Assembly: GCA_016873735.1 (NCBI GenBank)
Contig: VGWD01000003.1
Coordinates: 36,207 to 100,206, forward strand
From: Ignavibacteria bacterium
GTDB lineage: Bacteria > Bacteroidota > Ignavibacteria > Kapaibacteriales > UBA961
DNA length: 64,000 nucleotides
Reading direction: 5' to 3'
Shown here: positions 1 to 24,963 of the stretch, piece by piece
How positions within the stretch are numbered: the stretch's first letter is position 1
Layout of the letters: every line of letters starts with the position of its first letter
The notes under the pieces: model-generated
Databases searched by the model: none
What the model saw: the letters and a program-made list of their open reading frames with translations, nothing else
What the model was told of the DNA's origin: nothing
Made by a program: the position numbers and the translations under genes

Positions 1-603
1 CAAATTGTTTGCCATTTGGTAGCACCTAATGCCAAACTAGCTGCTCGTAATTCCTGAGGAACAGTACGGAGTGCTTCCTCCACAGATACGATTACAACCG
101 GTAGTGTAAGAACCGACAAGGTCGCGGCAGACCATAATAATGAAGGTTTGCTCCATATATCACTACCGGAAGCAGTATCAATGCCTTTTCCAATGAATTG
201 CATGAAAAATCCAACACCAAACAATCCAAACACAATCGAAGGAACTCCGGCCAAGGTATTGACGCCGAATCGAACCGATCGAGCAAACAAAGAAGACTGT
301 TTTGCATATTCACTGAGATAGACTGCTGTGGCAGTGCCAATCGGTACACCTAGTAATGACATCATGAATACTAAAATGACAGTCCCATATATGGCTGGAA
401 AAATGCCACCTTCCGTATTGTTGTTTCTTGGGGATTGGGTAAGGAACTCCCAAGTCAAACCAGGCAAGCCATGCCAAACAAAATGTGCAAGCAATAGTAT
501 GATCAGACCAACAAGTACAAAAGCAGAAAATGCCGGCAATCCCAGGGCGAGATATTCTTTTTTGGATCTCTTGATTGGTTTTCGTGTAATGAGTTCAGGA
601 TTC
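1..603 (-). CDS. pstA: phosphate ABC transporter permease PstA (3' partial; runs off the window start)
   Basis: The minus-strand frame is open from ATG (complement of 601-603) to position 1. Its translation contains the PstA motif ...SPRNNNTEGGIFPAIYGT... and the ABC permease EAA-like segment EEALRTVPQELRAASLALGATKWQT. It lies directly downstream of pstC. The ORF-track entries 92..349(-) and 328..630(+) are alternative frames over this gene. Confidence 0.8.
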
Positions 604-604
604 A

Positions 605-1756
605 TCAAGCACCTTGGAATTTTTTGGTGAGATATTTTTTCACAAAGAGCTCGGTAACGGCATTGATGGAGAAACTTACGATGAAGAGGAGAATACCAAG
701 GAAAAACAGAATATTGTAATGGAGTGAACCCCATTGCACTTCTCCTGTTTCAGATCCGATTGTTGCGGCAAGAGTTCGAACCGGATGAAAGATATTCCAT
801 GATAAAAGCGCAGCATTTCCTGTTGCCATCAATGCAATCATAGTTTCTCCGAAAGCCCTTCCAATACCAAGCAGAACGGCAGCCACAACACCGGGCAATG
901 CAGCAGGAAGCATCACTTTAAAGGCAGTCTCCCATTCTGTTGCTCCAAGGGCCAATGAGGCCTCTCTGTAACTTTTTGGTACTGCTGATAATGCATCCTC
1001 TGTTATTGTGAATATGATGGGAATAACAGCCAATCCAAGACCTATTCCACCAACAACACCTGAATAATGAAATTCGCTTATGGTACATGCTTCGTGGAGG
1101 TATTCTTTTGCAAAAGGAAGCAAGAAACCAAGCCCAGCTGCAAAAGCATCCAAACCCGATTGAATATAGGTGGTTATGAGATTTACACCGCGTACTATAG
1201 TTACCAAACAGAAAAATCCCAAAACAACTGATGGAAACCCGGCTAGAATTTCAACAGTTGGTTTTATCCACTCCCTGAACTTACGCTTGGCAAAAAATGC
1301 AGTGTAGATAGCAGCAAAAATACCAAGTGGGGTTGCTAACAACAATGCCACAAATGTCACTTTCAATGTTCCTGCCAGCAATGGCATGATGCCGTATTTA
1401 GGTTCCTTACCAACAGGTTGCCAAACTGTTCCAGCAATATTTTCCCAGATAGATTGTTTTTTTGTTTCTTTCTTTTTCTTGGATTCGGGTTCTTTTATCT
1501 TTTCGATTTCACCTGTTTCAGGATTGTAAACTTCGGGTTTCAAGATATCAGACTCTTTGACCTTCTTTTCAACTTTTGGTTTTAATTCTTTGGCAGTTCC
1601 AAAAATCAAACCACCAGCTTCTCTGAAAACAAAAATGAATATCAGAAAGATAACGATGATTGAAAAACTAGCTGTGATGCGTATTCCCCATTCGGCAAGC
1701 AACTCAATGATGATTTGCTTTTTAGATCGTTTTTTTTTTGATAAGAATTCAGGCAT
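605..1756 (-). CDS. pstC: phosphate ABC transporter permease PstC (with an unusually long K/E-rich first periplasmic loop)
   Basis: Multi-TM protein with the EAA-type motif EASLALGATEWETAFKVMLPAALPGVV. It is the first permease after pstS, matching the pstS-pstC-pstA order. The start/stop junction with pstA is immediate. Confidence 0.8.
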   Translation of the reverse strand: MPEFLSKKKRSKKQIIIELLAEWGIRITASFSIIVIFLIFIFVFREAGGLIFGTAKELKPKVEKKVKESDILKPEVYNPETGEIEKIKEPESKKKKETKKQSIWENIAGTVWQPVGKEPKYGIMPLLAGTLKVTFVALLLATPLGIFAAIYTAFFAKRKFREWIKPTVEILAGFPSVVLGFFCLVTIVRGVNLITTYIQSGLDAFAAGLGFLLPFAKEYLHEACTISEFHYSGVVGGIGLGLAVIPIIFTITEDALSAVPKSYREASLALGATEWETAFKVMLPAALPGVVAAVLLGIGRAFGETMIALMATGNAALLSWNIFHPVRTLAATIGSETGEVQWGSLHYNILFFLGILLFIVSFSINAVTELFVKKYLTKKFQGA

Positions 1757-1764
1757 GATGATAA

Positions 1765-2637
1765 TCAGAATTTCATTAATGGAAAATATCCAACATCGTT
1801 AACTACTTTCTGACCGCCTTTATCTATAACCCAATCTATGAATTCTTTCATTTGACCTTGGGGCTTGTCTTTGATGTAAAAGAATAAAAAACGAGAAATG
1901 GGGTATTTTCCTGAAAGGATATTTTCTTCTTTTGGAAAGTAATATGTTTTGTTTTCATCAAGCGCAACAGGTACTTCCTTTACTCCCACGGTATAAGCTG
2001 CTCCACCATATCCAATTCCCCATCTATCCATTGCAACTGCCCCAACTACTGCTGATGTCCCCGGCATATGTTGAGCAGTTGATGCAAAATCCTTTTTAGA
2101 AAGTACATGTTCTTTGAAAAACTCATATGTACCTGAATTGTTTTCTCGCGAGTATAGAATTATGTTGTGATCAGCACCACCTAATTGCTTCCAATTCTTG
2201 ATTTTGCCGGAGAAAATTTCCTTTAATTGCTTCAGGGTTATTTTCGAAATGGGATTGTCTTTATGCACATATATGCTGATACCATCTCTTGCTACTCTTA
2301 TCTCGACGGGTACGCGACCAAATTTTTCTTTCATTTGCGCAATTTCTGCCGGCTTCATTGGACGACTCGAGGAGCAAATGTCGGTAGTTCCATTAATCAA
2401 TGCAGCAATGCCAGTCCCGGATCCACCTCCAGTAACTTGAAATGAAACATTTTTAGTTGGGTACAATTCAGTCCAACGTTGAACCAAAATCACCATTGTA
2501 TCCGAACCTTTGATGGTCAAGGTAGATTGCTGGACAGCTGCTCCCATCAAAAAAAACATGCTGAAGATTGCTATCGAGGGGAAAAATCGCATAATGTTCA
2601 TTGAAGAAAAAAAAGTCATCAAATTTACTGTATTCAA
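1765..2637 (-). CDS. pstS: phosphate-binding periplasmic protein PstS
   Basis: Signal peptide, then motifs typical of the PstS family (GGGSGTGIAALINGTTDI, SSRPMK, NNSGTYEFF). The start may be one of several in-frame Met between 2592 and 2637. Confidence 0.85.
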   Translation of the reverse strand: MNTVNLMTFFSSMNIMRFFPSIAIFSMFFLMGAAVQQSTLTIKGSDTMVILVQRWTELYPTKNVSFQVTGGGSGTGIAALINGTTDICSSSRPMKPAEIAQMKEKFGRVPVEIRVARDGISIYVHKDNPISKITLKQLKEIFSGKIKNWKQLGGADHNIILYSRENNSGTYEFFKEHVLSKKDFASTAQHMPGTSAVVGAVAMDRWGIGYGGAAYTVGVKEVPVALDENKTYYFPKEENILSGKYPISRFLFFYIKDKPQGQMKEFIDWVIDKGGQKVVNDVGYFPLMKF

Positions 2638-2671
2638 ATGTGTATGAGGAGAGATCCAATGTTATGATTTC

Positions 2672-5600
2672 TTAATATAGACTTAAGTTATTGAAAATAT
2701 ATGGCTTTGTGTTTCCGTTTTTAGGAAATGTTAATACATATATGCCTTCTTGAAGATTATCCAATGAAAGTGAAGAACATGGAGAATCATTCAACATTCC
2801 CTGCTGAACCGTTCTTCCTGAAATATCTATGATGGAATAAGCCAAAGAATTACCTGCATGTACAATGATTAAGGAATTCCCCACTTGGTTCACGAGCGGT
2901 CTTTCATGTTCTTTGATTGATGCTACATTCCCTATGGTAAACGTGCGTATACCGGATGGTTCTGAATCACCGGCGGAATTTATTCCATAGACTCTCCAAT
3001 AATATCGTTTGCCGGTTCTTAATGCTGTTGAACCGGTGAATACTCCTGCAGGTATCATGGAACGTGAGAAGGTCAATGATGAAAATGTTGGAAACTCAGA
3101 TACTTCTATGCGAGAAAATACTGTTCCAATTGCAGTTTGCCATTGATATCGAATGAGAGTTGATTGTGAATTTGTGTCTTGCGAAGGATGGATGAGTATA
3201 GGTGAAGACACTTTTGAAGGAAGTGTATGAACTGAACCTGTAAACACACCTGCACCATGCGTGGCAATTGCCATATATCCATCAGAGATGCGATAATCCA
3301 ACATGGTGACAACAGCATTTCCTATTGAGTTCTGTCCTTCCTGTTGCCAACATGTAGCCATTCCTTGTAATGAGCCGGTTGAAAACAATCCAATACTGGT
3401 CCCAACATATACTTTAAAGCCCTGTTCAATGGGTACAATTTCTGCCCATCTGCATGATGGTCCTGCGCCTGAACCGGCTTGATTATCTTCAAGATTTCCA
3501 GCGATTGGAGTCCATTGCTCACCGCCATTCGAAGAATGAAACAATGAAATCACATTATAATTACTGAATACAGCAATGATTGACCTGGCATCTCTTGGAT
3601 CTATTGCAATACATTGAATGGTGCCATTTGAAAAACCAGATCCTGTGATATTCTTTGGAGTTGGATTACCTTGATGTGCTTGTTCAATCACAAAGAGATT
3701 ACCTTTATTCGTTCCATAATAAACCATATGTGCAGGGTTTCGTGATGCGGAAACGGCAGTTATAAGCTCTCCATCGGGTAAACGAGTTGCGGAAAGACTA
3801 TCCCAATTCACATTTGTTGAATCCCATCTATTCATGGGTATTGTAGAAAGATCATTGTTCCTCCATAATATGCTGCCTCCAGCAAGGTACATAATCTGTT
3901 CATTTTCCGGGTCTAGAATGAATGGATTGATGAACAGATAGTCTTTTCCTCCGATCGGATCTATCCGTCCCCGTTCAAGAATTGTTCCTGATTCATCGAG
4001 CTTCATGGCTACAACTCTGCCAAGTTGTGCCGACATAAAATATCGTGAGGCATTCTTTGCAATTGCACAAAATGCTCCATCATAAGTCAATGGCATTGTC
4101 CAAGGATTCAATGGATCCTTTCCTTGAGTGAAATAAGTCCCATTGTCCTGCAGTCCTCCAATGATCGTCTTCTTATGCTGTTCACCATGATCTATGGCGA
4201 TTGTATAAAATTGTGAAGTGATATATGAAGTATTGCAATCACTCCACACTGTTTTTCCTTCTAAGCAATTGTCTGTTATTTGTATTCCGCCATCATTGAA
4301 GGATATTGCTTTCAATGGATTTGACGGAAGAAACAATAGACCATGTTGATCAGGATGTTGTGAAGGATAAGTATCAAAATATGGCGTCATTGTACCGGGT
4401 TTATATCCGCCTATCCACTCAGTATTGACAGAGTCTACAAATCCTGATCTTGAACGATACAGATTTGTGCCACCTACAAAAATGGTATTGGTGTCCAAGG
4501 GGTGAACCTCGATCACAAGATCATAACCTGACTGCGTAATAAGATCACCAAAATGTCCGCCAAGTGTTGGGAGATTTACTGATCTATTTTCCCATGATCC
4601 GCCTGCGGAAGATCCATCTCCGGAAACATACTGATATTTCCAAAGGCTATTCCACTCTATGTCTCCTCTGAAATTTCTTGATTGTTTACCGCTGTTTGGA
4701 GTGTAACCGAAGAAATAGACTTGTCGTTCATCTTTGGGATTGACTCCAATTGCGATTTTGTAATATTGTTCTGGAAATCCAGTGGGTGTGATATTTGTCC
4801 ATTTTACTCCATCAATCGAACGCCAAATCCCTTTTACTTTGGAGATTGCTCCTCCCCCACCTATTTGACTCATTGTTGCATATACTATGCCTGTTGGAGT
4901 TATGGTAATGTCGGAAAACAATGATGATTGATTTCCAAGACTGCCCAAGACCGTTCGAAATGATTTGCCTCCATCGGTTGATCGTAGAATACCTCCTAAG
5001 GCAGTTGCAACATACAGTTCATCTTGTTGAAGATTGGAATAATCTTGTGCAATCTTGTTTACAAATTCAAATGATCCATCCCATGTTTGTGGTGTTTTGG
5101 ATTGTGTTGCAGAAAGCAAATTCCAGGATTCTCCATTATCTGAACTATGATAGATTCCATCACCGTTCAAATCCGATGAATTGCCATAAAATTCTCCGGT
5201 ACCTGCATACCAAGTGTTTTCTTTGCCCGGTCTCTTATCTTGAATGATGCAGGTAATACTCTGTAATTGATCATTCCTTAGTGTTTTCCTCCAGGACTTC
5301 CCTTGATCTGTAGATTTAAAAATACCGCTTGATACTCCTGCAGCTATGATGGTGTTTTCATCACGTATGTCCAAGTGTAATGCTCTTGTTCTTCCCCCCA
5401 CATTATTTGGTCCGGCAAATGTCCATTGATCATCATTTGCGACTTTGAAGTCATTAGTCACTTCAGAAGTATGAAATCGTTGCGCAAATGCCAATTCATC
5501 GGCTCTACTATGATGTGGGATTATGCCTGTTTTTGGATCGGCGAGCAACATATTCATATATAATTCTCTTGGACCAATATCCATTCCTTTCATAGGTGCA

Positions 5601-5677
5601 TTATTTGATTGCTTAGTGGAGCAGGAAAACAGCAATCCACAAAGACATATCATGAGAAATAGTACTGATTTGTTCAT
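2672..5677 (-). CDS. secreted BNR/Asp-box repeat protein (sortilin/GH74-like) with FN3-like region and T9SS C-terminal sorting domain
   Basis: Several S-x-D-x-G-x-S/T-W Asp-box repeats (STDQGKSW, SSDNGESW, STDGGKSF, SSNGGEQW). The C-terminal ~80 aa resembles a Por-secretion tail (IIDISGRTV...GIYVLTF). The start is taken at MNKSVLFLMICLCGLLFSC (lipoprotein-like signal). Its ATG overlaps the upstream stop as ATGA at 5674-5677. The ORF-track start at 5740 is a longer upstream extension. Confidence 0.75.
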   Translation of the reverse strand: MNKSVLFLMICLCGLLFSCSTKQSNNAPMKGMDIGPRELYMNMLLADPKTGIIPHHSRADELAFAQRFHTSEVTNDFKVANDDQWTFAGPNNVGGRTRALHLDIRDENTIIAAGVSSGIFKSTDQGKSWRKTLRNDQLQSITCIIQDKRPGKENTWYAGTGEFYGNSSDLNGDGIYHSSDNGESWNLLSATQSKTPQTWDGSFEFVNKIAQDYSNLQQDELYVATALGGILRSTDGGKSFRTVLGSLGNQSSLFSDITITPTGIVYATMSQIGGGGAISKVKGIWRSIDGVKWTNITPTGFPEQYYKIAIGVNPKDERQVYFFGYTPNSGKQSRNFRGDIEWNSLWKYQYVSGDGSSAGGSWENRSVNLPTLGGHFGDLITQSGYDLVIEVHPLDTNTIFVGGTNLYRSRSGFVDSVNTEWIGGYKPGTMTPYFDTYPSQHPDQHGLLFLPSNPLKAISFNDGGIQITDNCLEGKTVWSDCNTSYITSQFYTIAIDHGEQHKKTIIGGLQDNGTYFTQGKDPLNPWTMPLTYDGAFCAIAKNASRYFMSAQLGRVVAMKLDESGTILERGRIDPIGGKDYLFINPFILDPENEQIMYLAGGSILWRNNDLSTIPMNRWDSTNVNWDSLSATRLPDGELITAVSASRNPAHMVYYGTNKGNLFVIEQAHQGNPTPKNITGSGFSNGTIQCIAIDPRDARSIIAVFSNYNVISLFHSSNGGEQWTPIAGNLEDNQAGSGAGPSCRWAEIVPIEQGFKVYVGTSIGLFSTGSLQGMATCWQQEGQNSIGNAVVTMLDYRISDGYMAIATHGAGVFTGSVHTLPSKVSSPILIHPSQDTNSQSTLIRYQWQTAIGTVFSRIEVSEFPTFSSLTFSRSMIPAGVFTGSTALRTGKRYYWRVYGINSAGDSEPSGIRTFTIGNVASIKEHERPLVNQVGNSLIIVHAGNSLAYSIIDISGRTVQQGMLNDSPCSSLSLDNLQEGIYVLTFPKNGNTKPYIFNNLSLY

Positions 5678-6381
5678 CGCATTAACAGTGAATATGATTC
5701 TGCTTCCATCAAGAAATGTTCGCGGATGGAAGAGGAACAAGGTGAGGTATAATCCATTCTTTCAGGATGCCATTGAACACCCATGAAGAAAGGTTTGCCT
5801 ATAGGATCTGCCCATTCAATAGATTCAATGATTCCATCCGAAGAAAGTGAAGATGCTATTAATTCGGAAGGAAGTATCTTGATTGCTTGATGATGAGCAC
5901 TATTGACTATTGATTCATCCAAGCGAGTCAGTTTATGTAATAATGATTTCGCTTCGATTGATATAGAGTGATATGAATCTCGACCATCAACCTTTCCGTG
6001 TGTTATTGCATTTGGTATATCGGTTGGGATATCAACAACAAGACTTCCACCGTGCATAATGGCAAAGAATTGTTCACCCCTACAAATTGCTAGAATTGGT
6101 AAACGGAGTTGTAAAGCAATCTCGAGTAAAGCAGACTCCCGATCATCTCGTTCCGGCTCTATCGCGCATTCCGATATTCTATCTTCTGAACCATACCGTG
6201 ATGGATGAATGTCTGCACCACCCGTAAAAATAATGCCTGAACATGTGGATAATACATGCTCATACTCCTCAACTGCATAATCATTCATTGCAGAACAATC
6301 TACAGGTTGATGACTATTCAGCCAATGTTGATAGAGCATTGAATGTTCTGTTCCGGACCGATGTGATAATGCTATATTCAT
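5674..6381 (-). CDS. class I glutamine amidotransferase-like hydrolase (peptidase C26 / gamma-glutamyl-GABA hydrolase PuuD-like)
   Basis: Catalytic triad context LAICRGEQ (Cys nucleophile), HHQAI and GVQWHPE. The start is taken at MNIALSHR (ATG complement of 6379-6381), forming an ATGA overlap with the lpxK stop. The ORF-track start at 6405 would overlap lpxK by 28 nt. Confidence 0.7.
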   Translation of the reverse strand: MNIALSHRSGTEHSMLYQHWLNSHQPVDCSAMNDYAVEEYEHVLSTCSGIIFTGGADIHPSRYGSEDRISECAIEPERDDRESALLEIALQLRLPILAICRGEQFFAIMHGGSLVVDIPTDIPNAITHGKVDGRDSYHSISIEAKSLLHKLTRLDESIVNSAHHQAIKILPSELIASSLSSDGIIESIEWADPIGKPFFMGVQWHPERMDYTSPCSSSIREHFLMEAESYSLLMR

Positions 6382-7367
6382 TCTTTTACGATATACTGTG
6401 AACAAATTGAAAATAGTAGCTGCTGTACTAGTTGTTTACCTTCTATCAACTCAGCATGAATTGGAATCACCAATAATTGAATAGCGTATTTGTGAAAAAG
6501 CTTTATATAATCACGAAGTTTTACGATATCCTTTTCTGTAATTGCAATTGTTGAGCAACCTTGTTGCTTTGCTTCTTGACACAGAAGTTGAATAGTGCTT
6601 TCTGTATATTCTGCATGATCCTCAAACCATTTTACATGCTGTACATCATATTTATTATCAAGCAATGTTTGCAAAAATCTTTCCGGGTTCGCTATGCCTG
6701 CCACAGCCATTATTGGAGTTATATCAAATAACTCTGTGTATAGCTGTTCATCAAGAACATATGGAGTATCCATGTGTATGCTTACTCTGGCAAATACTGC
6801 CTGATCATTCATGAACATTCTTATTTCTTCTTCCGGCGTATCGTCAGTACAAATGATGATATGTGCTCTTTTAAGTGAAGTTTGTGATTCACGTAATCTT
6901 CCGATTGGCAATAGAACATCTTGTAAATCTTTTCTATTGATAAGCACAATGTCTATATCTCGAAAAATCTTTCTATGCTGAAACCCATCGTCTATCAGAA
7001 TCGGAGTGGAGAATTCAGCAAGGCCTTTGTATTTTGGTTGACAAGACAATACTGTATTGTAGAGTCCACTTTCTGCATGCATATATACTTCATCACCAAC
7101 AGTCGCCGGATTTATGCTTGATATTAGTTGTTTGTTTTGAACGATAGTTACAATGCCCTTCCCCAATCTTTTATAGCCACTTGAAAGCAAAGAGATGGGA
7201 ATTAGTACATCATGAAACATGCGTGCTATCATTAATGTACAGGGAGTTTTGCCGGTTCCTCCAACAGAAATATTACCAATGCTTATCACAGGGAATGGTG
7301 AGCGCATTTGTTTGATGATTCCGACATCATACAGTCGATTTCTTAAGTTGACAAAAAAGGATACCAT
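6378..7367 (-). CDS. lpxK: tetraacyldisaccharide 4'-kinase LpxK
   Basis: P-loop in LpxK context: ISIGNISVGGTGKTP. The start is taken at the ATG at 7367 (MVSFFVNLRN...), forming TAATG with the upstream stop. The ORF-track start at 7397 is a TTG codon. Confidence 0.85.
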   Translation of the reverse strand: MVSFFVNLRNRLYDVGIIKQMRSPFPVISIGNISVGGTGKTPCTLMIARMFHDVLIPISLLSSGYKRLGKGIVTIVQNKQLISSINPATVGDEVYMHAESGLYNTVLSCQPKYKGLAEFSTPILIDDGFQHRKIFRDIDIVLINRKDLQDVLLPIGRLRESQTSLKRAHIIICTDDTPEEEIRMFMNDQAVFARVSIHMDTPYVLDEQLYTELFDITPIMAVAGIANPERFLQTLLDNKYDVQHVKWFEDHAEYTESTIQLLCQEAKQQGCSTIAITEKDIVKLRDYIKLFHKYAIQLLVIPIHAELIEGKQLVQQLLFSICSQYIVKE

Positions 7368-7954
7368 TAGAGTTTTTCCTTTAATGTGTTTTCGCAAACT
7401 GATATAAAGGTTGAAACTTCTTCCTTGTCATTTGGATTGCCGGTAAATCTCAAGACATCATATGAAATCTCAATCTTAGAAAAGGGCAATGGCAATTTGA
7501 ATGCATCCCAACTTTTGCTGAAAGTGAAACAAGAAAGTTCATGTATTCTTGCCAAATATATTGGGACATCTGCTCGAATCGACGCTATGGCGGCGCCAGG
7601 CTTGAATACCTGTCTTGGTCCGCGAGGTCCATCAGGTGTCATCACGATGTGCATACCTGCTTCAAGACTGTCAATAACCTGTTCCAATGCTTCTTTTCCT
7701 GAATTCGAGCTGCTTCCTCTTATAGTATGAATTCCCCAACCATGAAGTATCTTGGACAATATCGCTCCGTCTTTACTCTTCGAAACAAGAGCACTTGGTT
7801 TGAAATATCTGTGCACATGCCAACCGGCAAGCATATGCTCATGCCAAAAGACAATGATGCTCGGTACATGCTTATCAGGTTGAGATCCAATATGCGAATA
7901 ACGCCAGCTGGAAGCAATCAATCGTAATAAGAGGATTCCTACATTAATCATCAT
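7367..7954 (-). CDS. DUF374-family lysophospholipid acyltransferase-like protein (commonly sits between Kdo/lipid A genes)
   Basis: About 195 aa. Wedged between lpxB and lpxK with an ATGA overlap at 7951-7954. Sequence style is that of DUF374 proteins (N-terminal hydrophobic segment; HEHML...MTPDGPRGP). Family assignment comes from pattern memory only. Confidence 0.55.
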   Translation of the reverse strand: MMINVGILLLRLIASSWRYSHIGSQPDKHVPSIIVFWHEHMLAGWHVHRYFKPSALVSKSKDGAILSKILHGWGIHTIRGSSSNSGKEALEQVIDSLEAGMHIVMTPDGPRGPRQVFKPGAAIASIRADVPIYLARIHELSCFTFSKSWDAFKLPLPFSKIEISYDVLRFTGNPNDKEEVSTFISVCENTLKEKL

Positions 7955-9054
7955 CGCTTTTCCCTGCTATTGATGATATCTGTAATTATCTCAGCGGCTC
8001 GCAAGGAGGCACCGGCTCCACCCAATTTTGCGCGTATTTCGGCAAATCCTTCCAATTGAAGTGCTCTTTCAGGTGTATCATTCAATAGATTCTGAAGAGA
8101 ATGCAACATGGAATGAGAAGTCGCATGTGATTGAATCAGTTCAGGAATAAGTGATTGCTCCAAAAGAATATTGGGAAGTGAAATCCATGGCAAGGTGATT
8201 TTCCTCTTTGAAATGGCATAGGATACATAGGAAGTGGAATAATAAGAGATGAATGGCATGCCATATAATGCAGCTTCAAGTGTGCTCGTGCCCATTTTTA
8301 CGCACCCGGCTTGAGAAGTTTGCAAAAGAGTAGAAGCTGCTTGGGTTATGTGAAAACTATGTGCTTTCATGCATATTTCCAGATTCCATAAATGTTCTGG
8401 TATGCAAAAAATCGGAGTGAATTGTTCAGATTTCAATTGTTGTGCAATTGGAATCAATAAAGGCAAATGATGAATCAATTCCTGTTTACGGGATCCAGGC
8501 ATCAAACAAATAGTCTTTTGATCCCTTTGAATGGTTGAAAGCTGCAGATCTATTCGGTCCAATAAAGGATGTCCGACAAAATGAGATTCAATTCCACAAT
8601 CTGAAAAAAAACCATCCTCAAAAGGCAGCACCGTGAGGAGTTTATCATATGATTGTTTAACGGATTCGGCTCGAGTTTTTCCCCATGCCCATAATTGAGG
8701 AGCTATATAACAAATGGACTTTATACCGAGAGATCGTGCATATCTCCCCAATCTCATATTGAATCCGGGATAATCTACAGCTATGAATGCATCATATGCT
8801 CCGTCTTTCAAAGCTAGTTTGCATTGATTGAGAATGCCGCTTAAAGCTGAGTAATGTTTAATGACTTCAAAAAATCCGGATACATTCAGTGTTGAAAAGT
8901 CTGCAATGGAATTAAGGCCTTTGGCATGCATCGAGGGACCACCGATTCCATCAATAATGCAATCGGGCATGAGTTTCCTGATCTGCTCGATCAATAAGGC
9001 ACCATGGGAATCACCGGACATTTCTCCGGCTACTATGAAAATTCTCTTTGTCAT
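7951..9054 (-). CDS. lpxB: lipid-A-disaccharide synthase LpxB
   Basis: N-terminal IFIVAGEMSGDSHGA motif (GExSGD), and length and architecture typical of LpxB. The start is taken at MTKRIFIV (ATG complement of 9052-9054). The longer ORF-track start at 9123 adds 23 codons. Confidence 0.85.
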   Translation of the reverse strand: MTKRIFIVAGEMSGDSHGALLIEQIRKLMPDCIIDGIGGPSMHAKGLNSIADFSTLNVSGFFEVIKHYSALSGILNQCKLALKDGAYDAFIAVDYPGFNMRLGRYARSLGIKSICYIAPQLWAWGKTRAESVKQSYDKLLTVLPFEDGFFSDCGIESHFVGHPLLDRIDLQLSTIQRDQKTICLMPGSRKQELIHHLPLLIPIAQQLKSEQFTPIFCIPEHLWNLEICMKAHSFHITQAASTLLQTSQAGCVKMGTSTLEAALYGMPFISYYSTSYVSYAISKRKITLPWISLPNILLEQSLIPELIQSHATSHSMLHSLQNLLNDTPERALQLEGFAEIRAKLGGAGASLRAAEIITDIINSREKR

Positions 9055-9184
9055 AGTGCAAAAATACATTCTAAGCCCATACATTAAGGTGCGTAAACGC
9101 AGTAAATCTCGTATTTTTGCCATTGGTCAATCTGACCAAATATATAGGACATTCACTCTAAAGAAGCATTTAAGGGTTTTGATC

Positions 9185-10063
9185 ATGAATCTGCATCTGT
9201 TTATTCCGGCCATTGTTTGCTTATTATTGATGGTTGGTTGTTCAAAAGGGCCTAGCTCTGCTGAGTTTCTTTCATTGAAAGCTGAGATGTATTTGCGCTC
9301 AGGTGAAACAGGCAGTGCCCAAAAATATGTCTCTAAAGCTCTTGAGGCTGATCCAAAGCTAATTGAAGCCCACCTTTTACAGAGTAAGGTCTATGTTGTT
9401 GAAAATAAAGCCGATAAGGCTATCGAACAATTAGAGCAAGCTCGCGGAATAGATGCACAAGATCTTGATGTTTTATATTCTCTTGGATTCATGTACACAA
9501 GAAAAGGCTCTTATGACAAAGCCTTGACAGTTTATAATGAGGCAATCACTGTATATCCCGATACCGCGCTTGGCTATAACAATATAGCTGTGACCTATCA
9601 TTCGAAAAAGGATTTCAAGAAGGCAGTCGAGAATTATAAGAAGGCATTGAATATCAATCCTTCATTTGTTGAAGCTCATTATAATATCGGCAATAGTTAT
9701 GCAATGATGGGAAAAATGAAGGAAGCAATTCAATCGTATAATAAATCTGTTGAATTGGATCCTAAATATACTGATGCTTATATAGAACTTTCTTCAGTAT
9801 ATGGAAAATTAGGCAATCAGTCCGAGGCAGGAAATAATGTGGGATTATTTTATTTCTGGAAAGAACAATATGAAAAAGCAGCAAAAGCTTTTGAGGATGT
9901 GATTAAATCAAATCCCAACTATGCAGTTGCTTATAATAATCTTGCAGTCACATATGATAAATTGGGCAATCGCGAATTATCAATGGAAAATTTGAAGAAG
10001 TCAGCTTCACTCGGATATTCACCTGCGATAGAAATTTGCAAGAAAAACAATATCCTTTTTTAA
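9185..10063 (+). CDS. TPR-repeat lipoprotein
   Basis: Lipoprotein signal MNLHLFIPAIVCLLLMVGC, followed by 6-7 TPR units (AxxYxxLG / AYNNLA patterns). The ORF-track start at 8861 overlaps lpxB on the other strand and is rejected. Confidence 0.7.
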   Translation: MNLHLFIPAIVCLLLMVGCSKGPSSAEFLSLKAEMYLRSGETGSAQKYVSKALEADPKLIEAHLLQSKVYVVENKADKAIEQLEQARGIDAQDLDVLYSLGFMYTRKGSYDKALTVYNEAITVYPDTALGYNNIAVTYHSKKDFKKAVENYKKALNINPSFVEAHYNIGNSYAMMGKMKEAIQSYNKSVELDPKYTDAYIELSSVYGKLGNQSEAGNNVGLFYFWKEQYEKAAKAFEDVIKSNPNYAVAYNNLAVTYDKLGNRELSMENLKKSASLGYSPAIEICKKNNILF

Positions 10064-10638
10064 AATGATATGTTCATTCCGATCCCGTTGCTTGTAAATG
10101 AAATGGATTGGATAATCGATTGCAACTGTTTTCCATGATGTGCATTCGCAGCATACAATGCGGCATCGAACAATAAAAGAAATGCACCTTGCAGAATGAT
10201 AGCATTGCCAAATCCACGCAGTCTTGTTTCTTGATCGGATGTTTTTGCTTTTTCACGAAGATAGAAACCACCAACAATATAAGCCAGGTCAAGTCCTGCA
10301 TTCACTGCAAGCAATGTTTCAATTGAATGTTGTTCTGCTATGGTTCCGGACAATGTAGTTGGCATGGACTGGGCAAAATATCCGAAGCCGGCAATCGATG
10401 CATTCACAATGTTCCAGCCGGCATTCATTTGCCAGAAGGCGGAACTCTCACCATGCGTCTGAGTTGAGTTGATTCCGCCAATGATGATATTTGCGAGAGC
10501 CCATGATCCCAAGACCTGCATGCCGGTTTGTTGGATTGAAATCCTTTCCGCATTGAACGTTTGCAGGACGCTATCTCCGGACATGGAGAATAATGGTTGA
10601 GTACAACAACATAACAGGATTATAATGGAGAAATACAT
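10060..10638 (-). CDS. hypothetical membrane protein (uncertain gene)
   Basis: Open frame with hydrophobic, membrane-like segments. Both of its ends overlap neighbouring genes on the opposite strand. Possible starts at 10638 or 10584 collide with the divergent TPR gene start (10625/10637). It may be spurious. Confidence 0.35.
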   Translation of the reverse strand: MYFSIIILLCCCTQPLFSMSGDSVLQTFNAERISIQQTGMQVLGSWALANIIIGGINSTQTHGESSAFWQMNAGWNIVNASIAGFGYFAQSMPTTLSGTIAEQHSIETLLAVNAGLDLAYIVGGFYLREKAKTSDQETRLRGFGNAIILQGAFLLLFDAALYAANAHHGKQLQSIIQSISFTSNGIGMNISF

Positions 10639-11827
10639 GAAGTGTATCCTTGTATTGATGTGTTTGTTTTTTTGTATTGGACAAAACATACTTCTTTCTG
10701 CGTCTGTTCCTTCCGATGTTGCAGATATGAAATACAGAGCGGACTCTCTAAAACGTACTAAATCTTACAATGAAGCATTGCAATTGTATGATTCATTACT
10801 CATTGAAGAGCCGAGTGATATGGATATCATGATCTCGAAAGGCATATGTCAGTCACAGATCGGTGAAATCAATAAAGCACTTGAAACATTCAAAAAAGTA
10901 AAGGACATAGATTCTACAAGCCCATTGCTCTGGAAAAGTATTGGCGATTCTTATCTCTTTGCCAATCTACCTCAATCCGCAATAATATCCTATGTCCGTT
11001 CAATATCACTTAATCCAAACTATTCACAGGCATATTCATCACTGGGCTCAGCTTATCAGAGAATCAATATGAGCGATACTGCCGAGCTAGCATTTAAAAA
11101 AGCGCTGGATATTGATTCAATGAATCATGAGGCCTGGTATAATTGGTCATTATTGCTGAATGCAAATGGTTCTGTTGATCAAGCAATGCAATGTTTGAAA
11201 AGATCCATCGCTGTTAAGCAAGATTTTGCTCCCGCATTCAATAATCTGGGTATGCTATATTATGGAGCCGGTTTTGCAGATAGTGCATTGTCTGCCTTCA
11301 ATGCTGCAATCATACTTGATAAATCAAATTCATATTATTACAATAATGCAGGTCTTGCTTGTTTGGACTTACGAGATACATTGCAAGCATATAATTTCTT
11401 CAAAAATGCATTACGCTATGATTCTGTGAATGTGAAGGCTCTTTTCAATACGGGATTGACTTCATACTTTCTTTTGCAATATAAGGATGGTATTGAGTAT
11501 ATCATGAAAGCTTTGCAATTACAACCTAATGTAGCAGATTATTGGTATACAGTTGGTTTAATTCATGCTGCAAACAATGAACAACACATTGCCTCGGGAT
11601 ATTGGATCCGATGTATGAATTTGGACAGTACCAATTCAAAATATAGCTATGCTATTGGATCCTTATATGATGATTCATCATCCGTCAAAAGAGAATACTA
11701 TACAATTGCTTCCTCTTTAGGTAATGAAAAAGCAAAATTATGGCTTGATGCACATCCTATCATGAAGGAAACCATTCCGGTTGATGAAGTTCCTCAGACA
11801 AAAAAGAAAAAGAAAAAAAAGCGATGA
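10625..11827 (+). CDS. TPR-repeat protein with signal peptide and poly-lysine C-terminus
   Basis: Signal peptide MKCILVLMCLFFCIG, about 9 TPR-like units, and a C-terminal QTKKKKKKKR encoded by an A-rich run. The start may be 10625 or 10637. Confidence 0.7.
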   Translation: MEKYMKCILVLMCLFFCIGQNILLSASVPSDVADMKYRADSLKRTKSYNEALQLYDSLLIEEPSDMDIMISKGICQSQIGEINKALETFKKVKDIDSTSPLLWKSIGDSYLFANLPQSAIISYVRSISLNPNYSQAYSSLGSAYQRINMSDTAELAFKKALDIDSMNHEAWYNWSLLLNANGSVDQAMQCLKRSIAVKQDFAPAFNNLGMLYYGAGFADSALSAFNAAIILDKSNSYYYNNAGLACLDLRDTLQAYNFFKNALRYDSVNVKALFNTGLTSYFLLQYKDGIEYIMKALQLQPNVADYWYTVGLIHAANNEQHIASGYWIRCMNLDSTNSKYSYAIGSLYDDSSSVKREYYTIASSLGNEKAKLWLDAHPIMKETIPVDEVPQTKKKKKKKR

Positions 11828-19180: not shown

Positions 19181-19252
19181 GCCAATTTAGCTCAGTGGTA
19201 GAGCAGCTCACTCGTAATGAGCAGGTCGCCGGTTCAAGTCCGGCAATTGGCT
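19181..19252 (+). tRNA. tRNA-Thr (anticodon CGU); no genomically encoded CCA
   Basis: Hand-folded cloverleaf: 7-bp acceptor stem gccaatt/aattggc, D-arm gctc-agtggta-gagc, anticodon stem gctca/tgagc with loop ctCGTaa, and T-arm gccgg-ttcaagt-ccggc. The discriminator T is followed by 'ca', not CCA. Confidence 0.85.
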
Positions 19253-19259
19253 CAATGCA

Positions 19260-22454: not shown

Positions 22455-24962
22455 TTATCGAGTAATGGTGAAAGGTGCCGAAAACGAAATTGATCCGCAC
22501 ATTACATGAATGAAATATGGTCCATTTGGCAAATCTCTGATTGATAATTCAATCGATTGCTGTGTTATTCTTATGGGGGTTAATGTTTCAATGACTGTTC
22601 TTCCTTTTCCATCTGTGATCATGACAAATGATGCATCGCAAATCATCGGAATATTGTGAACATTGATGATATCTTTCGCTGGATTAGGGAAAATAGAAAG
22701 TGCAGTCTCTTCAGTGATTCCTGCAACTTTTGCACAGGATCCCTGTGATGTGATGGCAATTGTTACAGGTGCAGATGCGATTGATGTGTCGAGTCTATAG
22801 CTAGCTCTGAATTGATAGAGCCCTTCAGTCATTGCCGGGACATTCCATACATAATTCCCGGGTACCGCATCATGACCTAGCGTCGATATTCTTTTCCAAG
22901 TGGTTTGCCCAAGAGTTCGGTATTCTAAAAAGACCTTGCTATTGTCCATGAATTGAGAGTTCCATAGGACTGAATCGGGTTGGCCAATACAAAGCGTGTC
23001 ATTATTGACGGGGCTTGTCAAAGCTATGGTCTCTTTTCCAATTTCAAATGGCCCTGTTTGACTCATTAATTTCCGACTTATGTCTAATACTCTAAACAAG
23101 CAATTCTTAGATTCAACATAGGGTATGTCAACTGTCATGGAAGAGGAAGAAATTGAATCAGTGATTAATGACCAAGTAGAACCATTATTGGAAGAAAATT
23201 CAATGTCAACTCTTTCTATGAATTCTTTGGTCCATGATAGATTTAATCGTTCTTTTTGACCAAATTTCTTTGAGCGTAAATCAGTTGTCAATACCAAACT
23301 TGCTTTGGCTATTGTAAAATCTGCCCATGAAGTATCTTTGATCTGACTATTATTTGCATCGACCACACGTATTCTTCCTTTTGTAGTTGGATTATCGGGT
23401 ATGGTCCATTTAAATATGCCGGTTCCATTAGCTTCAGTAACAGCCGGTCTCGATACAAATATTGCTCTCCAAGAAATTCCGCCATCTGTACTGAACTCGA
23501 TATTGATATTATTCACTCTGTGGGATGTCCATTCAATGTCGGTTTGATTTCCAACAATGAATGCTTGCTGACCCCACGGATAAATCATGCGAATGGATGG
23601 TTGAGTGGCAGCTTCGATACATGGACGGGTTTCAAGATAATTACGTAAATAGGTTGAGACACGTGGCAAAAATGTAAATGCGACGGAACGCGATGGATTA
23701 GTCAAGTGACAATAGCTCATGATTGAGCCGGGATTAGGTAGAGGTGTACTTTTATAGCATGCTTCGACTGAATAGTTTCCACGCCCTCTGAATGCGGAAC
23801 CGCTTGTCATGCATGAATCTAAACCTCTTGGAGGCCAAAAAGTACAATTATGTGTGTGATAAGACCCGATATTATGTCCGAGTTCATGTGCTATGGTTAC
23901 AATATCACCTACATAATCATTTATCTTGGACAATCCGTTTTTGAAAATGCCCGCAACTGAATATGCATTTGAAACACTACCCGAGCATACATTCCCAATG
24001 CCATTTGCAATGCCCAAAACAAAAAGACCACCTGTTGTTGGAACTGCATCCAAACAATGTACTATATCCCTTTTTATGGTTGTTAATTTGCTCCAACGAT
24101 TTTCAACTTCATCCAGAAGTGCCGGTGCATTTCCATCATTGGTGTATGGGTCAGGGGTAGTAGCTGTCCAAATTTGAAGTCTTGGAATCACGATTGCGAT
24201 GTTCAATTCCTTTCTATACAATGAATTGACGCCATTCATGAGTCCAATCATAAATTCAGCGGTTCTAATTGAGTCTTTTCTGCCGGGACCATTAAAGAAA
24301 GGAGTAGTGCCTTCTACGATAACCTGCAATTCAAGCAAGTTATTGCCAAATATTTTATCGGACTTTGGCAAATAAGCATATAAGTCCTCGGGGGTTGGAA
24401 TGGTAATAGCTGACTCATCAGTCATGCACGTACCACCGGACTTTCTCAATTCACCCTGAATCTGCTGATCATATAACATATGGTGGGAAGAATTGTCGAT
24501 TTCTTCCATTGGGGCTATATGTACCCGAGTTCCATTGGCTCTCTCTACCCACCCGCTCAACTCTCCATGTGCATGAGTCAAAAGAATGGTAGAACCAGGT
24601 TCATTCTTGACATGACCGGTAAATGTTCTAACCTGTGGAATCGGAAAGCGCTCATTGCCAATATATAATTCAGTGGAACCATCAACGATAGAAGGTACCA
24701 GTTGTAACTCAATTGTACCTGTTTCAGAAAGTGATATGGGAAAATTATCAATACGAATTTCTGAACCTGATTCAACAAATGCGATTGAGGTCCAAACCTG
24801 CTCCAAGATCATATGTCTTGCATGAACGCGATATTCTTCCGGAAGCGTGTGGGAGGATTGAAATGTTATTCCCAAACCTGCATCAATAGTTTTGGATGAT
24901 GCATCTGTGAACATTGACAAAACACAGAGAATTGTCACAATTCCGGACTTCATATATTGCAT
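22455..24962 (-). CDS. secreted metzincin-type zinc metalloprotease (reprolysin/M12B-M43-like) with Ig/FN3-like repeats and T9SS C-terminal domain, paralog A
   Basis: HELGHNIGSYH (HExxHxxGxxH) followed by a Met-turn-like SIMSYC. The C-terminal FPNPAKD...GPYFIHV is a T9SS tail. The start may be 24962 (MQYMKSG) or 24953 (MKSG). Confidence 0.75.
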   Translation of the reverse strand: MQYMKSGIVTILCVLSMFTDASSKTIDAGLGITFQSSHTLPEEYRVHARHMILEQVWTSIAFVESGSEIRIDNFPISLSETGTIELQLVPSIVDGSTELYIGNERFPIPQVRTFTGHVKNEPGSTILLTHAHGELSGWVERANGTRVHIAPMEEIDNSSHHMLYDQQIQGELRKSGGTCMTDESAITIPTPEDLYAYLPKSDKIFGNNLLELQVIVEGTTPFFNGPGRKDSIRTAEFMIGLMNGVNSLYRKELNIAIVIPRLQIWTATTPDPYTNDGNAPALLDEVENRWSKLTTIKRDIVHCLDAVPTTGGLFVLGIANGIGNVCSGSVSNAYSVAGIFKNGLSKINDYVGDIVTIAHELGHNIGSYHTHNCTFWPPRGLDSCMTSGSAFRGRGNYSVEACYKSTPLPNPGSIMSYCHLTNPSRSVAFTFLPRVSTYLRNYLETRPCIEAATQPSIRMIYPWGQQAFIVGNQTDIEWTSHRVNNINIEFSTDGGISWRAIFVSRPAVTEANGTGIFKWTIPDNPTTKGRIRVVDANNSQIKDTSWADFTIAKASLVLTTDLRSKKFGQKERLNLSWTKEFIERVDIEFSSNNGSTWSLITDSISSSSMTVDIPYVESKNCLFRVLDISRKLMSQTGPFEIGKETIALTSPVNNDTLCIGQPDSVLWNSQFMDNSKVFLEYRTLGQTTWKRISTLGHDAVPGNYVWNVPAMTEGLYQFRASYRLDTSIASAPVTIAITSQGSCAKVAGITEETALSIFPNPAKDIINVHNIPMICDASFVMITDGKGRTVIETLTPIRITQQSIELSIRDLPNGPYFIHVMCGSISFSAPFTITR

Positions 24963-24963
24963 A

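Follow-up and report, generated by a model that had tools for sequence, protein, structure and literature searches.

A Peptidase_C26 hydrolase gene adjoining lpxK in a compact lipid A gene array of an Ignavibacteria bacterium

Five co-directional genes are encoded on the minus strand of the window (the whole 64,000-nucleotide stretch of DNA that was analysed), namely lpxB, a DUF374 gene, lpxK, a Peptidase_C26 gene and a gene coding for a 1001-aa BNR-repeat protein, as read from its list of open reading frames. Taken jointly, the data lean towards one compact, probably polycistronic housekeeping/envelope array, in which the C26 protein is a generic hydrolase and its linkage to lpxK would reflect operon inheritance. 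From its sequence, the best reading of the C26 protein itself is a generic gamma-glutamyl-amide hydrolase inside one housekeeping operon. Its persistence beside lpxK provides a genuine lead, still unproven, to a new lipid A-associated enzyme; the features of the locus other than this pairing are ordinary.

Lipid A genes and organisation of the array

The first gene, lpxB (7951..9054, minus strand), encodes a lipid-A-disaccharide synthase (PF02684, 262.7 bits) at equivalog level (TIGR00215, 223.7 against a cut-off of 190.25). Its longest ORF reaches 9123; the start at 9054 fits the beginning of the family profile, and the gene is called at 363-377 aa in relatives. It is followed by the DUF374 gene (7367..7954, minus strand; PF04028, 82 bits, cut-off 26.8), which encodes a putative LpxJ-family lipid A late (3'-secondary) acyltransferase, DUF374 having been equated with LpxJ, the lipid A late acyltransferase family (PMC6148475). 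The annotation is corrected here to LpxJ, so that lpxB-lpxJ-lpxK constitutes a coherent lipid A block. The third gene, lpxK (6378..7367, minus strand), codes for a canonical tetraacyldisaccharide 4'-kinase, without extra domain, supported by PF02606 (218.5 bits) and at equivalog level by TIGR00682 (162, cut-off 91.95); the residues of its P-loop, GGTGKT, are invariant in the LpxK alignment A2. The three products would act as disaccharide synthase, late acyltransferase and 4'-kinase of the Raetz lipid A pathway. Family profile scores thus bear out the gene identities given in an earlier note on this DNA, which had however overlooked the lipid A role of DUF374.

In Escherichia coli, lpx genes are found in clusters such as lpxD-fabZ-lpxA-lpxB and msbA-lpxK, and mixing with unrelated housekeeping genes is typical. 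As in the Raetz lipid A clusters and with the LpxJ of Helicobacter, Campylobacter and Rickettsia (PMC6148475), lpxB, lpxK and the LpxJ-family gene are clustered co-directionally in the window, which differs by the order lpxB-lpxJ-lpxK and by a conserved C26 gene directly after lpxK.

Stop and start codons overlap at every junction of the array. Indeed, the sequence reads ATGA between lpxB and the DUF374 gene (7954-7951), TAATG between the latter and lpxK (7369-7365), ATGA between lpxK and the C26 gene (6381-6378) and ATGA between the C26 and BNR genes (5677-5674). The five-gene order on one strand and all four overlaps had been reported in the earlier note at these coordinates and were recovered here. 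The "tight coupling" deduced from them is another matter: the overlaps are real, but a 1- or 4-nt overlap is possible at about 15 of the 40 co-directional junctions of the window and more than half of these 40 have at most 10 nt between the genes. Overlapping junctions being the norm, they constitute weak evidence of coupling and by themselves say little on function, and four consecutive ones are unremarkable for an operon of this genome.

A scan of positions 500-10200 revealed no terminator-like or promoter-like excess inside the array, and sigma-70-type signal never rose above chance there, a promoter type that may not be that of the host group. With its co-directional genes, overlapping or minimal junctions and lack of an internal terminator, the array has the gene layout of an operon. 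Its promoter likely lies in the intergenic stretch that separates lpxB from a divergent TPR-protein gene (9055..9184, no strand assigned, delimited on the sequence); the whole array would be co-transcribed from there, upstream of lpxB, and termination-reinitiation at the overlapping stop/start codons could couple translation. Shine-Dalgarno sequences appear weak or absent.

The Peptidase_C26 hydrolase

The fourth gene (5674..6381, minus strand) is predicted to encode a cytoplasmic gamma-glutamyl amidohydrolase of the Peptidase_C26 family, PuuD/SpuA/Lin1909-like and with a class I GATase fold. Its product passes the PF07722 gathering score by a wide margin (149.3 versus 20.5 bits). An intact Cys-His-Glu triad (C100, H205 and E207), invariant in the C26 alignment A1 and retained by 69-71 of the 71 homologs compared, aligns with the motifs of PuuD and Lin1909, and the motifs ICRG, HHQ and VQWHPE are present. 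The AF2 model (pLDDT 96.2) has the class I GATase alpha/beta fold; its query-normalised TM-score is 0.83 against 3fij and 0.82 against PuuD (6vtv).

Family, fold, triad and motifs are common to the C26 protein and to E. coli PuuD (gamma-glutamyl-GABA hydrolase, 6vtv), Pseudomonas aeruginosa SpuA (7d4r/7d53) and Listeria Lin1909 (3fij). Query-normalised TM-scores to the three are 0.80-0.83, with an identity of only 21-32%; the N-terminus of the C26 protein is shorter, its score against the PuuD equivalog NF008471 (72.8 bits) is under the cut-off of 266, and its gene is tied to lpxK, without adjacent PuuA/PuuB/PuuC-type partners. PuuA-like ligase and dehydrogenase genes are likewise absent beside C26 in the lpxK-linked loci, and no Puu partner gene was found beside C26 in any Ignavibacteria/Kapaibacteria-type locus, which was counted against a generic hydrolase.

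Conservation of the lpxK-C26 pair

The earlier note would have judged the association incidental had close relatives lacked the C26 gene here. They do not: C26 follows lpxK in the close relatives L087-L092 and L097, and also in many deep Ignavibacteria/Kapaibacteria-type lineages. In total, the pair is retained in about 20 such lineages, across which LpxK is only 21-35% identical to that of the window, and the junction is mostly overlapping (ATGA, GTGA or TAATG in at least 8 lineages). The flanking genes differ among lineages. Indeed, the pair is kept without adjacent lpxB in L003 (where it comes after mltG/yceG), L006 and L013, and it is followed variously by genes for an M23 peptidase, a DUF4292/LolA-like protein, YitT, PPDK or a BNR protein. 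It is thus much more deeply conserved than its surroundings, which was also counted against the generic-hydrolase reading, such conservation being usually read as a sign of functional association. In one MAG (L037), LpxK and C26 are fused in a single reading frame; no further fusion was found among the 120 matches listed of 4276 database matches (E <= 1e-20).

The synteny that the earlier note proposed to check over the FCB group holds in Ignavibacteria/Kapaibacteria-type lineages, with exceptions (lpxK without adjacent C26 in L085/L086 and C26 without lpxK in L045), but not in the recovered homologs from Bacteroidales and Chitinophagales. In the former, the C26 gene comes after rpsP-rimM-tRNA methyltransferase, neighbours assigned by reading the sequences. 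In the latter, it has genes for a GlnA-like ligase and an Fe-alcohol dehydrogenase on one side, for an aldehyde dehydrogenase on the other and for an APC permease nearby; with these four identities assigned by reading the sequences, without family search, the genes are laid out as in a Puu-type gamma-glutamylation pathway. Within the group itself, mixed arrays such as smc-HAD-methyltransferase-lpxB-TPR-lpxK-C26-ppdK-queA occur, and this mixing of unrelated housekeeping genes in conserved order was counted for the operon-inheritance explanation. According to that explanation, C26 and lpxK would have been inherited throughout the group as a tight two-gene unit, the linkage reflecting stable operon inheritance and co-expression without shared chemistry, and C26 would act not on a lipid A intermediate but on a generic substrate, either gamma-glutamylated amines or amides of a similar kind.

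Possible role in lipid A biosynthesis and other explanations

Among the alternatives, the one that survives best is that C26 is a true lipid A/LPS accessory enzyme of Ignavibacteria and Kapaibacteria, performing hydrolysis or nitrogen transfer near the LpxK step at the cytoplasmic face; we regard this as unlikely, and the same low probability is given to its presumed target, a gamma-glutamyl or amide group on lipid A, on Kdo or on a precursor substituent. The coupled pair, deep, tight and independent of its flanks, and the single fused ORF of L037 would be the genomic signature of such an enzyme. Envelope-related neighbours in several lineages (lpxB, lpxJ, mltG, M23 peptidase and DUF4292/LolA-like genes) and, in one clade, genes for an ICMT/PEMT-type methyltransferase and a HAD phosphatase upstream of lpxB point the same way. 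There is also a precedent for C26 enzymes in glycan modification. The capsule O-methyl-phosphoramidate pathway of Campylobacter jejuni includes such an enzyme, the gamma-glutamyl-CDP-amidate hydrolase Cj1417. Like the C26 gene of the window, it would represent a C26-type gene beside kinases, in its case modifying a surface glycoconjugate; however, companion glutamine kinase and cytidylyltransferase genes were not seen, and the match to NF045546, the profile of the Campylobacter enzyme, is weak (49.6 bits, E = 5e-13) and far from reaching its cut-off of 250. The parallel with Cj1417 is offered as a lead. C26 might conceivably be an unrecognised lipid A/LPS enzyme specific to Ignavibacteria and Kapaibacteria that acts with LpxK and takes a gamma-glutamyl group off a lipid A/Kdo substituent or supplies it with amide nitrogen, for example to generate an amidated or phosphoramidate-type head-group, a proposal to which we give little credence.

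Against a lipid A role, C26 homologs of other lipid A-making Bacteroidota are unlinked to lpx genes, some of them lying in Puu-like clusters, some lineages have lpxK without C26 beside it, and the fusion is a singleton among the matches listed. The alignment of C26 homologs yielded no subfamily-specific conserved residues, that is, no position at which the lpxK-linked and Puu-linked groups differ while both reach at least 80% conservation, which was counted for the generic reading. A literature search found no link of lpxK to a C26/GATase enzyme and no description of an lpxK-C26 pairing, and we know of no Raetz-pathway intermediate or lipid A modification with a gamma-glutamyl amide.

It is less probable still that the arrangement is incidental, a product of compact-genome packing with separate internal promoters and biologically meaningless adjacency. 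In its favour, genes of the window normally overlap or lie within 10 nt of each other, the BNR and pst genes plainly have no functional tie to lipid A, and the promoter scan was of a sigma-70 type that may not match the promoters of the host group. However, the interior of the array is free of terminator-like or promoter-like excess, and lpxK and C26 have stayed adjacent across very deep divergence despite extensive reshuffling on either side, which neutral packing does not predict.

Finally, it is highly improbable that C26 serves a two-component amidotransferase as its glutaminase, delivering ammonia to LpxK or another synthase partner: the class I GATase fold with its intact triad, the adjacent P-loop kinase, the one fused ORF and the structural neighbours beyond PuuD/SpuA (GATase subunits of GMP, CTP and ADC synthases) speak for it, but Peptidase_C26 (149 bits) far outscores GATase PF00117 (39.7 bits), the nearest structures are stand-alone hydrolases (target-normalised TM-scores 0.74-0.88), partner-dependent GATase subunits being comparable (0.74-0.83) but farther in E-value, identity and query coverage, LpxK is canonical and carries no additional domain, and we know of no amination chemistry at the 4' position.

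The generic hydrolase in an inherited operon is retained as the preferred reading. We know of no experimental study of lipid A structure or biosynthesis in Ignavibacteria/Kapaibacteria, and none of the papers listed by a literature search covering these groups mentioned either. Having stayed with lpxK across class-level divergence, C26 makes a concrete candidate, open to experimental test, for a new accessory step. Should it act on lipid A, gamma-glutamyl/amide chemistry would be added to the known lipid A modifications; otherwise there is nothing unusual in this compact housekeeping operon, and as a passenger C26 would offer a clean case of deep synteny misleading function prediction.

The BNR/GH74-like protein and the flanking pst genes

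The last gene of the array (2672..5677, minus strand) encodes a 1001-aa BNR/Asp-box protein with a lipoprotein signal and four strict Asp boxes; BNR/Sortilin-like Pfam profile matches are weak, every one under threshold. In identical contigs, the gene caller starts it 28 codons later (973 aa), leaving an 81-nt gap. The overlapping start is preferred because it gives a lipoprotein-type signal peptide, MNKSVLFLMICLCGLLFSC, conserved in orthologs as judged by eye, and because the same start is called in relatives (L087-L090); the start codon of this BNR/T9SS gene is set accordingly.

A GH74-like tandem beta-propeller core is predicted for the protein, along with an Fn3-like domain and, at the C-terminus, a divergent T9SS type A domain (AF2 pLDDT 85.5). 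Foldseek assigned the core to the tandem 7-bladed beta-propeller fold of GH74, with GH74 xyloglucanases as top matches (E = 1e-23, target-normalised TM-score about 0.65, and 0.60-0.67 over GH74 structures). The predicted core thus resembles that of 5fkt, 2cn2 and 6p2l, likewise tandem 7-bladed propellers with Asp boxes; with only 14-16% identity the likeness is at fold level, and the protein differs by its lipoprotein signal, Fn3-like domain and T9SS-type tail. The C-terminal 70 residues form a beta-sandwich in the AF2 model, and the protein scores 21.3 bits against Por_Secre_tail (PF18962; Pfam threshold 27) and 16.7 against TIGR04183 (23). Tail scores of orthologs are 18-22.5 bits, and most homologs at about 45% identity carry PF18962. 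More than 3000 homologs are unnamed or merely designated "T9SS type A sorting domain-containing protein". The protein, called T9SS cargo in the earlier note, is probably just that; it has an N-terminal Sec signal peptide as judged by eye, and its tail score stays under threshold.

The BNR gene lies next to C26 only in relatives whose BNR protein shares at least 52% identity and whose C26 shares about 48-51%, and was not found after C26 in deeper relatives. Coupled to the lipid A genes according to the earlier note, the gene is a lineage-specific neighbour outside the conserved unit; its product would be secreted or exposed at the surface and contain a GH74-like double propeller, and a pst phosphate-uptake operon comes next. 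Indeed, the pst genes lie directly downstream, as previously noted: pstS, coding for a phosphate-binding protein (1765..2637, minus strand; TIGR02136, 246.7, cut-off 206.6), begins 34-52 nt past the BNR stop codon and is followed by pstC, coding for a phosphate ABC permease (605..1756, minus strand; TIGR02138, 238.1, cut-off 196.45), while pstA would be truncated by the window start, judging from the genes tabulated for L001, an identical contig.

Gene content and organization of the array

A co-directional array without interruption in the ORF list is encoded on the minus strand of the window (605-9123). Indeed, the array includes an lpxB gene (7951-9054, or to 9123; TIGR00215, score 223.7 for a cut-off of 190.25), a DUF374 gene (7367-7954; PF04028, 82 bits), an lpxK gene (6378-7367; TIGR00682, 162 for a cut-off of 91.95), a Peptidase_C26/class I GATase gene, hereafter C26 (5674-6381; PF07722, 149.3 bits), a gene for a 1001-aa BNR/Sortilin-like protein (2672-5677), whose family matches are all below threshold, pstS (1765-2637; TIGR02136, 246.7 for a cut-off of 206.6) and pstC (605-1756; TIGR02138, 238.1 for a cut-off of 196.45), all on the minus strand. 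On the same strand, stop and start codons overlap, as read from the sequence, as ATGA (7954-7951), TAATG (7369-7365), ATGA (6381-6378) and ATGA (5677-5674). Family searches and junction reading thus bear out the five co-directional genes and four overlaps that an earlier note had described. DUF374 corresponds to LpxJ, a family of late (3'-secondary) acyltransferases acting on lipid A (PMC6148475), so that lpxB-lpxJ-lpxK form a coherent lipid A block, and all parts of the array belong to known families.

The earlier note had taken this tight coupling to imply co-translation. When junctions were measured throughout the 64-kb window, the four overlaps were dropped as special evidence of co-translation: an overlap of 1 or 4 nt between stop and start is possible at about 15 of the about 40 co-directional junctions, and gaps are of 10 nt or less at more than half of them. 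The genes neighbouring the array have mixed housekeeping functions. Shine-Dalgarno sequences, read from the junction sequences, are weak or absent 5' of the array starts, which makes translational coupling via overlapping stop and start codons plausible. No excess over shuffled controls was found between 500 and 10200, either for intrinsic terminators (7 versus 6.1) or for promoters (27 sites versus 31.9 expected), the promoter scan being uninformative and weak evidence either way since its consensus was that of sigma-70 and the host group probably uses other promoter types.

Rfam and tRNA scans gave no match in the array region; the sole RNA gene detected in the window is a tRNA-Thr (CGT) on the plus strand (19181-19253), flanked by two genes of the minus strand. 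Divergent from lpxB, the region 9185-11827 encodes a TPR protein, a DUF6992 membrane protein (10060-10689, minus strand) and a second TPR protein. Five loci of relatives (L087-L091) keep the order of the DUF6992 gene, ORFs at the TPR-gene positions and a Mur-ligase gene, a TPR match being recorded only in L091.

Conservation of the lpxK-C26 pair

Judged by the names that its close homologs bear, the host belongs to Ignavibacteria/Kapaibacteria. The array lpxB-DUF374-lpxK-C26-BNR-pstSCAB-phoU is kept whole in close relatives whose C26 identity is 81%, 61% or 51%, and also in locus L097 (BNR protein identity, 52%). The C26 gene, whose absence from this position in close relatives would have made the association incidental according to the earlier note, is thus present there. 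A scan of species-representative genomes with the C26 alignment gave 80 loci, whose neighbours were identified by tblastn of the window's proteins. In 14 of these, lpxK lies directly 5' of C26 (L003-L007, L013, L017, L018, L028, L032, L034, L037, L058 and L070), and in L062 the two genes are separated by a 1.1-kb insertion. According to their titles, 8 of these 15 loci are from Kapaibacterium or Ignavibacteria, and the titles of the others are broader or say little (Bacteroidota/Bacteroidetes bacterium, "bacterium"); the Hyphomicrobiales title of L007 is taken to be a mislabel. Their LpxK proteins share only 21-35% identity with that of the window. In at least eight lineages, lpxK and C26 meet in an ATGA, GTGA or TAATG; in others, the junction lies between -41 and +138 nt. 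Furthermore, the flanks of the pair vary by lineage, both on the 5' side (lpxJ; a TPR protein; mltG/yceG in L003; an unrelated S74-domain protein in L006) and on the 3' side (M23 peptidase; DUF4292/LolA-like; YitT; PPDK; convergent T9SS proteins; the BNR gene). Because adjacency is kept across lineages with differing flanks, the lpxK-C26 pair is a conserved core and not an incidental association. The linked lineages number roughly 20 in all.

In a reverse test from LpxK proteins, C26 directly follows lpxK in five of the six sampled lineages, the exception being L085/L086, in which lpxK leads straight to ppdK without C26; all six were selected for their relatedness to the LpxK of L037 and have in common the array smc-HAD-ICMT/PEMT-lpxB-TPR-lpxK-(C26)-ppdK, so that this test samples one clade.

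The most economical reading, which we consider on balance probable, is that the array would be one housekeeping operon with translational coupling through its overlapping stop and start codons, that C26 would be a generic PuuD/SpuA-like gamma-glutamyl-amide hydrolase inherited with lpxK as a stable unit, and that the lineage-specific BNR surface protein and the pst operon would be downstream additions. The deep and tight lpxK-C26 linkage also speaks for a genuine role of C26 in lipid A/LPS, as proposed in the earlier note, but such a role is backed by no known chemistry and by no data of this analysis, and appears rather unlikely; in the literature, no link of lpxK to a C26/GATase enzyme was found, nor of peptidase C26 to LPS. 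Pure coincidence, with separate transcripts, is at odds with the conservation pattern of the pair and is more doubtful still. The observation made in the earlier note therefore stands, its interpretation is only partly supported, and the lpxK-C26 pairing constitutes an undescribed but modest comparative-genomics lead.

The synteny, which the earlier note proposed to check across FCB-group genomes, holds within Ignavibacteria/Kapaibacteria-type lineages but not outside them; among the scanned loci, C26 homologs outside this group are without lpxK linkage and occur in other contexts. In Bacteroidales (L008-L025, L061), rpsP, rimM and a tRNA methyltransferase-like gene lie upstream of C26, and in Chitinophagales C26 belongs to a cluster encoding an APC permease, a glutamine-synthetase-like (GlnA-like) ligase, an Fe-alcohol dehydrogenase, C26 and an aldehyde dehydrogenase, the neighbours in both orders having been identified by sequence reading of representatives and not by family search. 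The Chitinophagales cluster is conserved in L029, L036, L039, L041, L042, L049, L054 and L055 (within about 5 kb of position 10001 on each side) and, as read from the sequence, resembles the gene layout of the Puu-type gamma-glutamylation pathway. Within the Ignavibacteria/Kapaibacteria-type group, one Kapaibacterium locus (L045) has C26 without lpxK. In several Bacteroidales loci, C26 is then followed, by sequence reading, by genes for a MarC-like membrane protein and a MORN-repeat-like protein and by gdhA.

In one Bacteroidota MAG (L037:8933-10687), LpxK and C26 form a single 584-aa ORF with no stop codon between them, and the usual C26 start (MRPVIGFT) is in frame within it. A database search with this ORF gave only stand-alone LpxK among the 120 matches listed, of 4276 at E <= 1e-20, and the L037 fusion itself is absent from those 120. 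Treated as a singleton, it was set aside as Rosetta-stone evidence and may reflect the loss of a stop codon or a misassembly.

In another Ignavibacteria-type clade (L083:2643-3967, also L084, L093 and L095), genes for a HAD/Put_Phosphatase protein and a methyltransferase of the ICMT/PEMT family precede lpxB, in the conserved order smc-HAD-methyltransferase-lpxB-TPR-lpxK-C26-ppdK-queA. LmtA, the lipid A 1-phosphate methyltransferase of Leptospira, is an ICMT-family enzyme, and by analogy the methyltransferase gene 5' of lpxB may serve in lipid A modification. Directly 3' of C26 lies, in three Ignavibacteria-type lineages (L028, L032, L034), a gene for a DUF4292/LolA-like protein of the outer-membrane lipoprotein-sorting type and, in L005 and L018, one for an M23 peptidase, both of which are envelope-related.

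Properties of the C26 protein

The C26 protein lacks a signal peptide. Across 32 homologs its Cys100-His205-Glu207 triad does not vary, and in a set of 71 homologs it is found in 69-71. Among solved structures, its model (pLDDT 96.2) comes closest to Lin1909 (3fij), PuuD of E. coli (6vtv) and SpuA of P. aeruginosa (TM-scores of 0.80-0.83, normalised to the query). An equivalog assignment to PuuD was ruled out (72.8 bits for a cut-off of 266). A function as glutaminase subunit of an amidotransferase is very improbable, because the Peptidase_C26 score is far above the GATase score and stand-alone hydrolases are the nearest relatives in sequence and E-value. In a comparison of lpxK-linked with Puu-linked C26 proteins for specificity-determining residues, no alignment position separated the two sets. 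According to a rough neighbour-joining tree, the genes linked to lpxK are paraphyletic and fall into two groups within the FCB clade; one of these has most of the Bacteroidales genes nested inside it, and the sister of the other is a cluster of the Chitinophagales genes with L037.

BNR protein and T9SS

On metagenome contigs from freshwater-lake samples that are identical in sequence to the window, the gene caller starts the BNR protein at Met29 (L001:4863-7784; L002:4408-5745; sequence of window 2672-5593), yielding 973 aa and losing the signal peptide. The start at the overlap restores a lipoprotein-type signal peptide, MNKSVLFLMICLCGLLFSC, which is conserved in orthologs, and is the better one because of this conservation and because the same start is called in L087-L090. 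Four strict Asp boxes are present. A database search revealed an unusually well conserved family of T9SS cargo proteins with a GH74-like double beta-propeller; it has more than 3000 members with about 45% identity over 80-90% of the length (800+ residues), most of which carry PF18962 and the name 'T9SS type A sorting domain-containing protein'. Many Asp, Trp and Gly residues are invariant among the homologs retrieved (P0241-P0360), the Asp residues being D47, D147, D180, D443, D462, D511 and D533. The predicted core (pLDDT 85.5) resembles the tandem beta-propellers of GH74 enzymes (E = 1e-23; identity 14-16%; TM-score about 0.65 when normalised to the target). A sialidase and a Pho-regulon phosphatase were both dropped as candidates, with no family match and a GH74-like fold.

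The BNR gene accompanies lpxK-C26 in a lineage-specific manner and does not belong to the conserved unit: only close relatives keep it after C26, and a homolog at 46% identity lies in an unrelated gene context. The T9SS tail of the protein scores 21.3 bits for a threshold of 27, and those of orthologs 18-22.5 bits. A reprolysin-like M12 metalloprotease (22455-25004, minus strand), whose Por_Secre_tail match of 33.5 bits is above threshold, supports the presence of T9SS cargo proteins in this organism.
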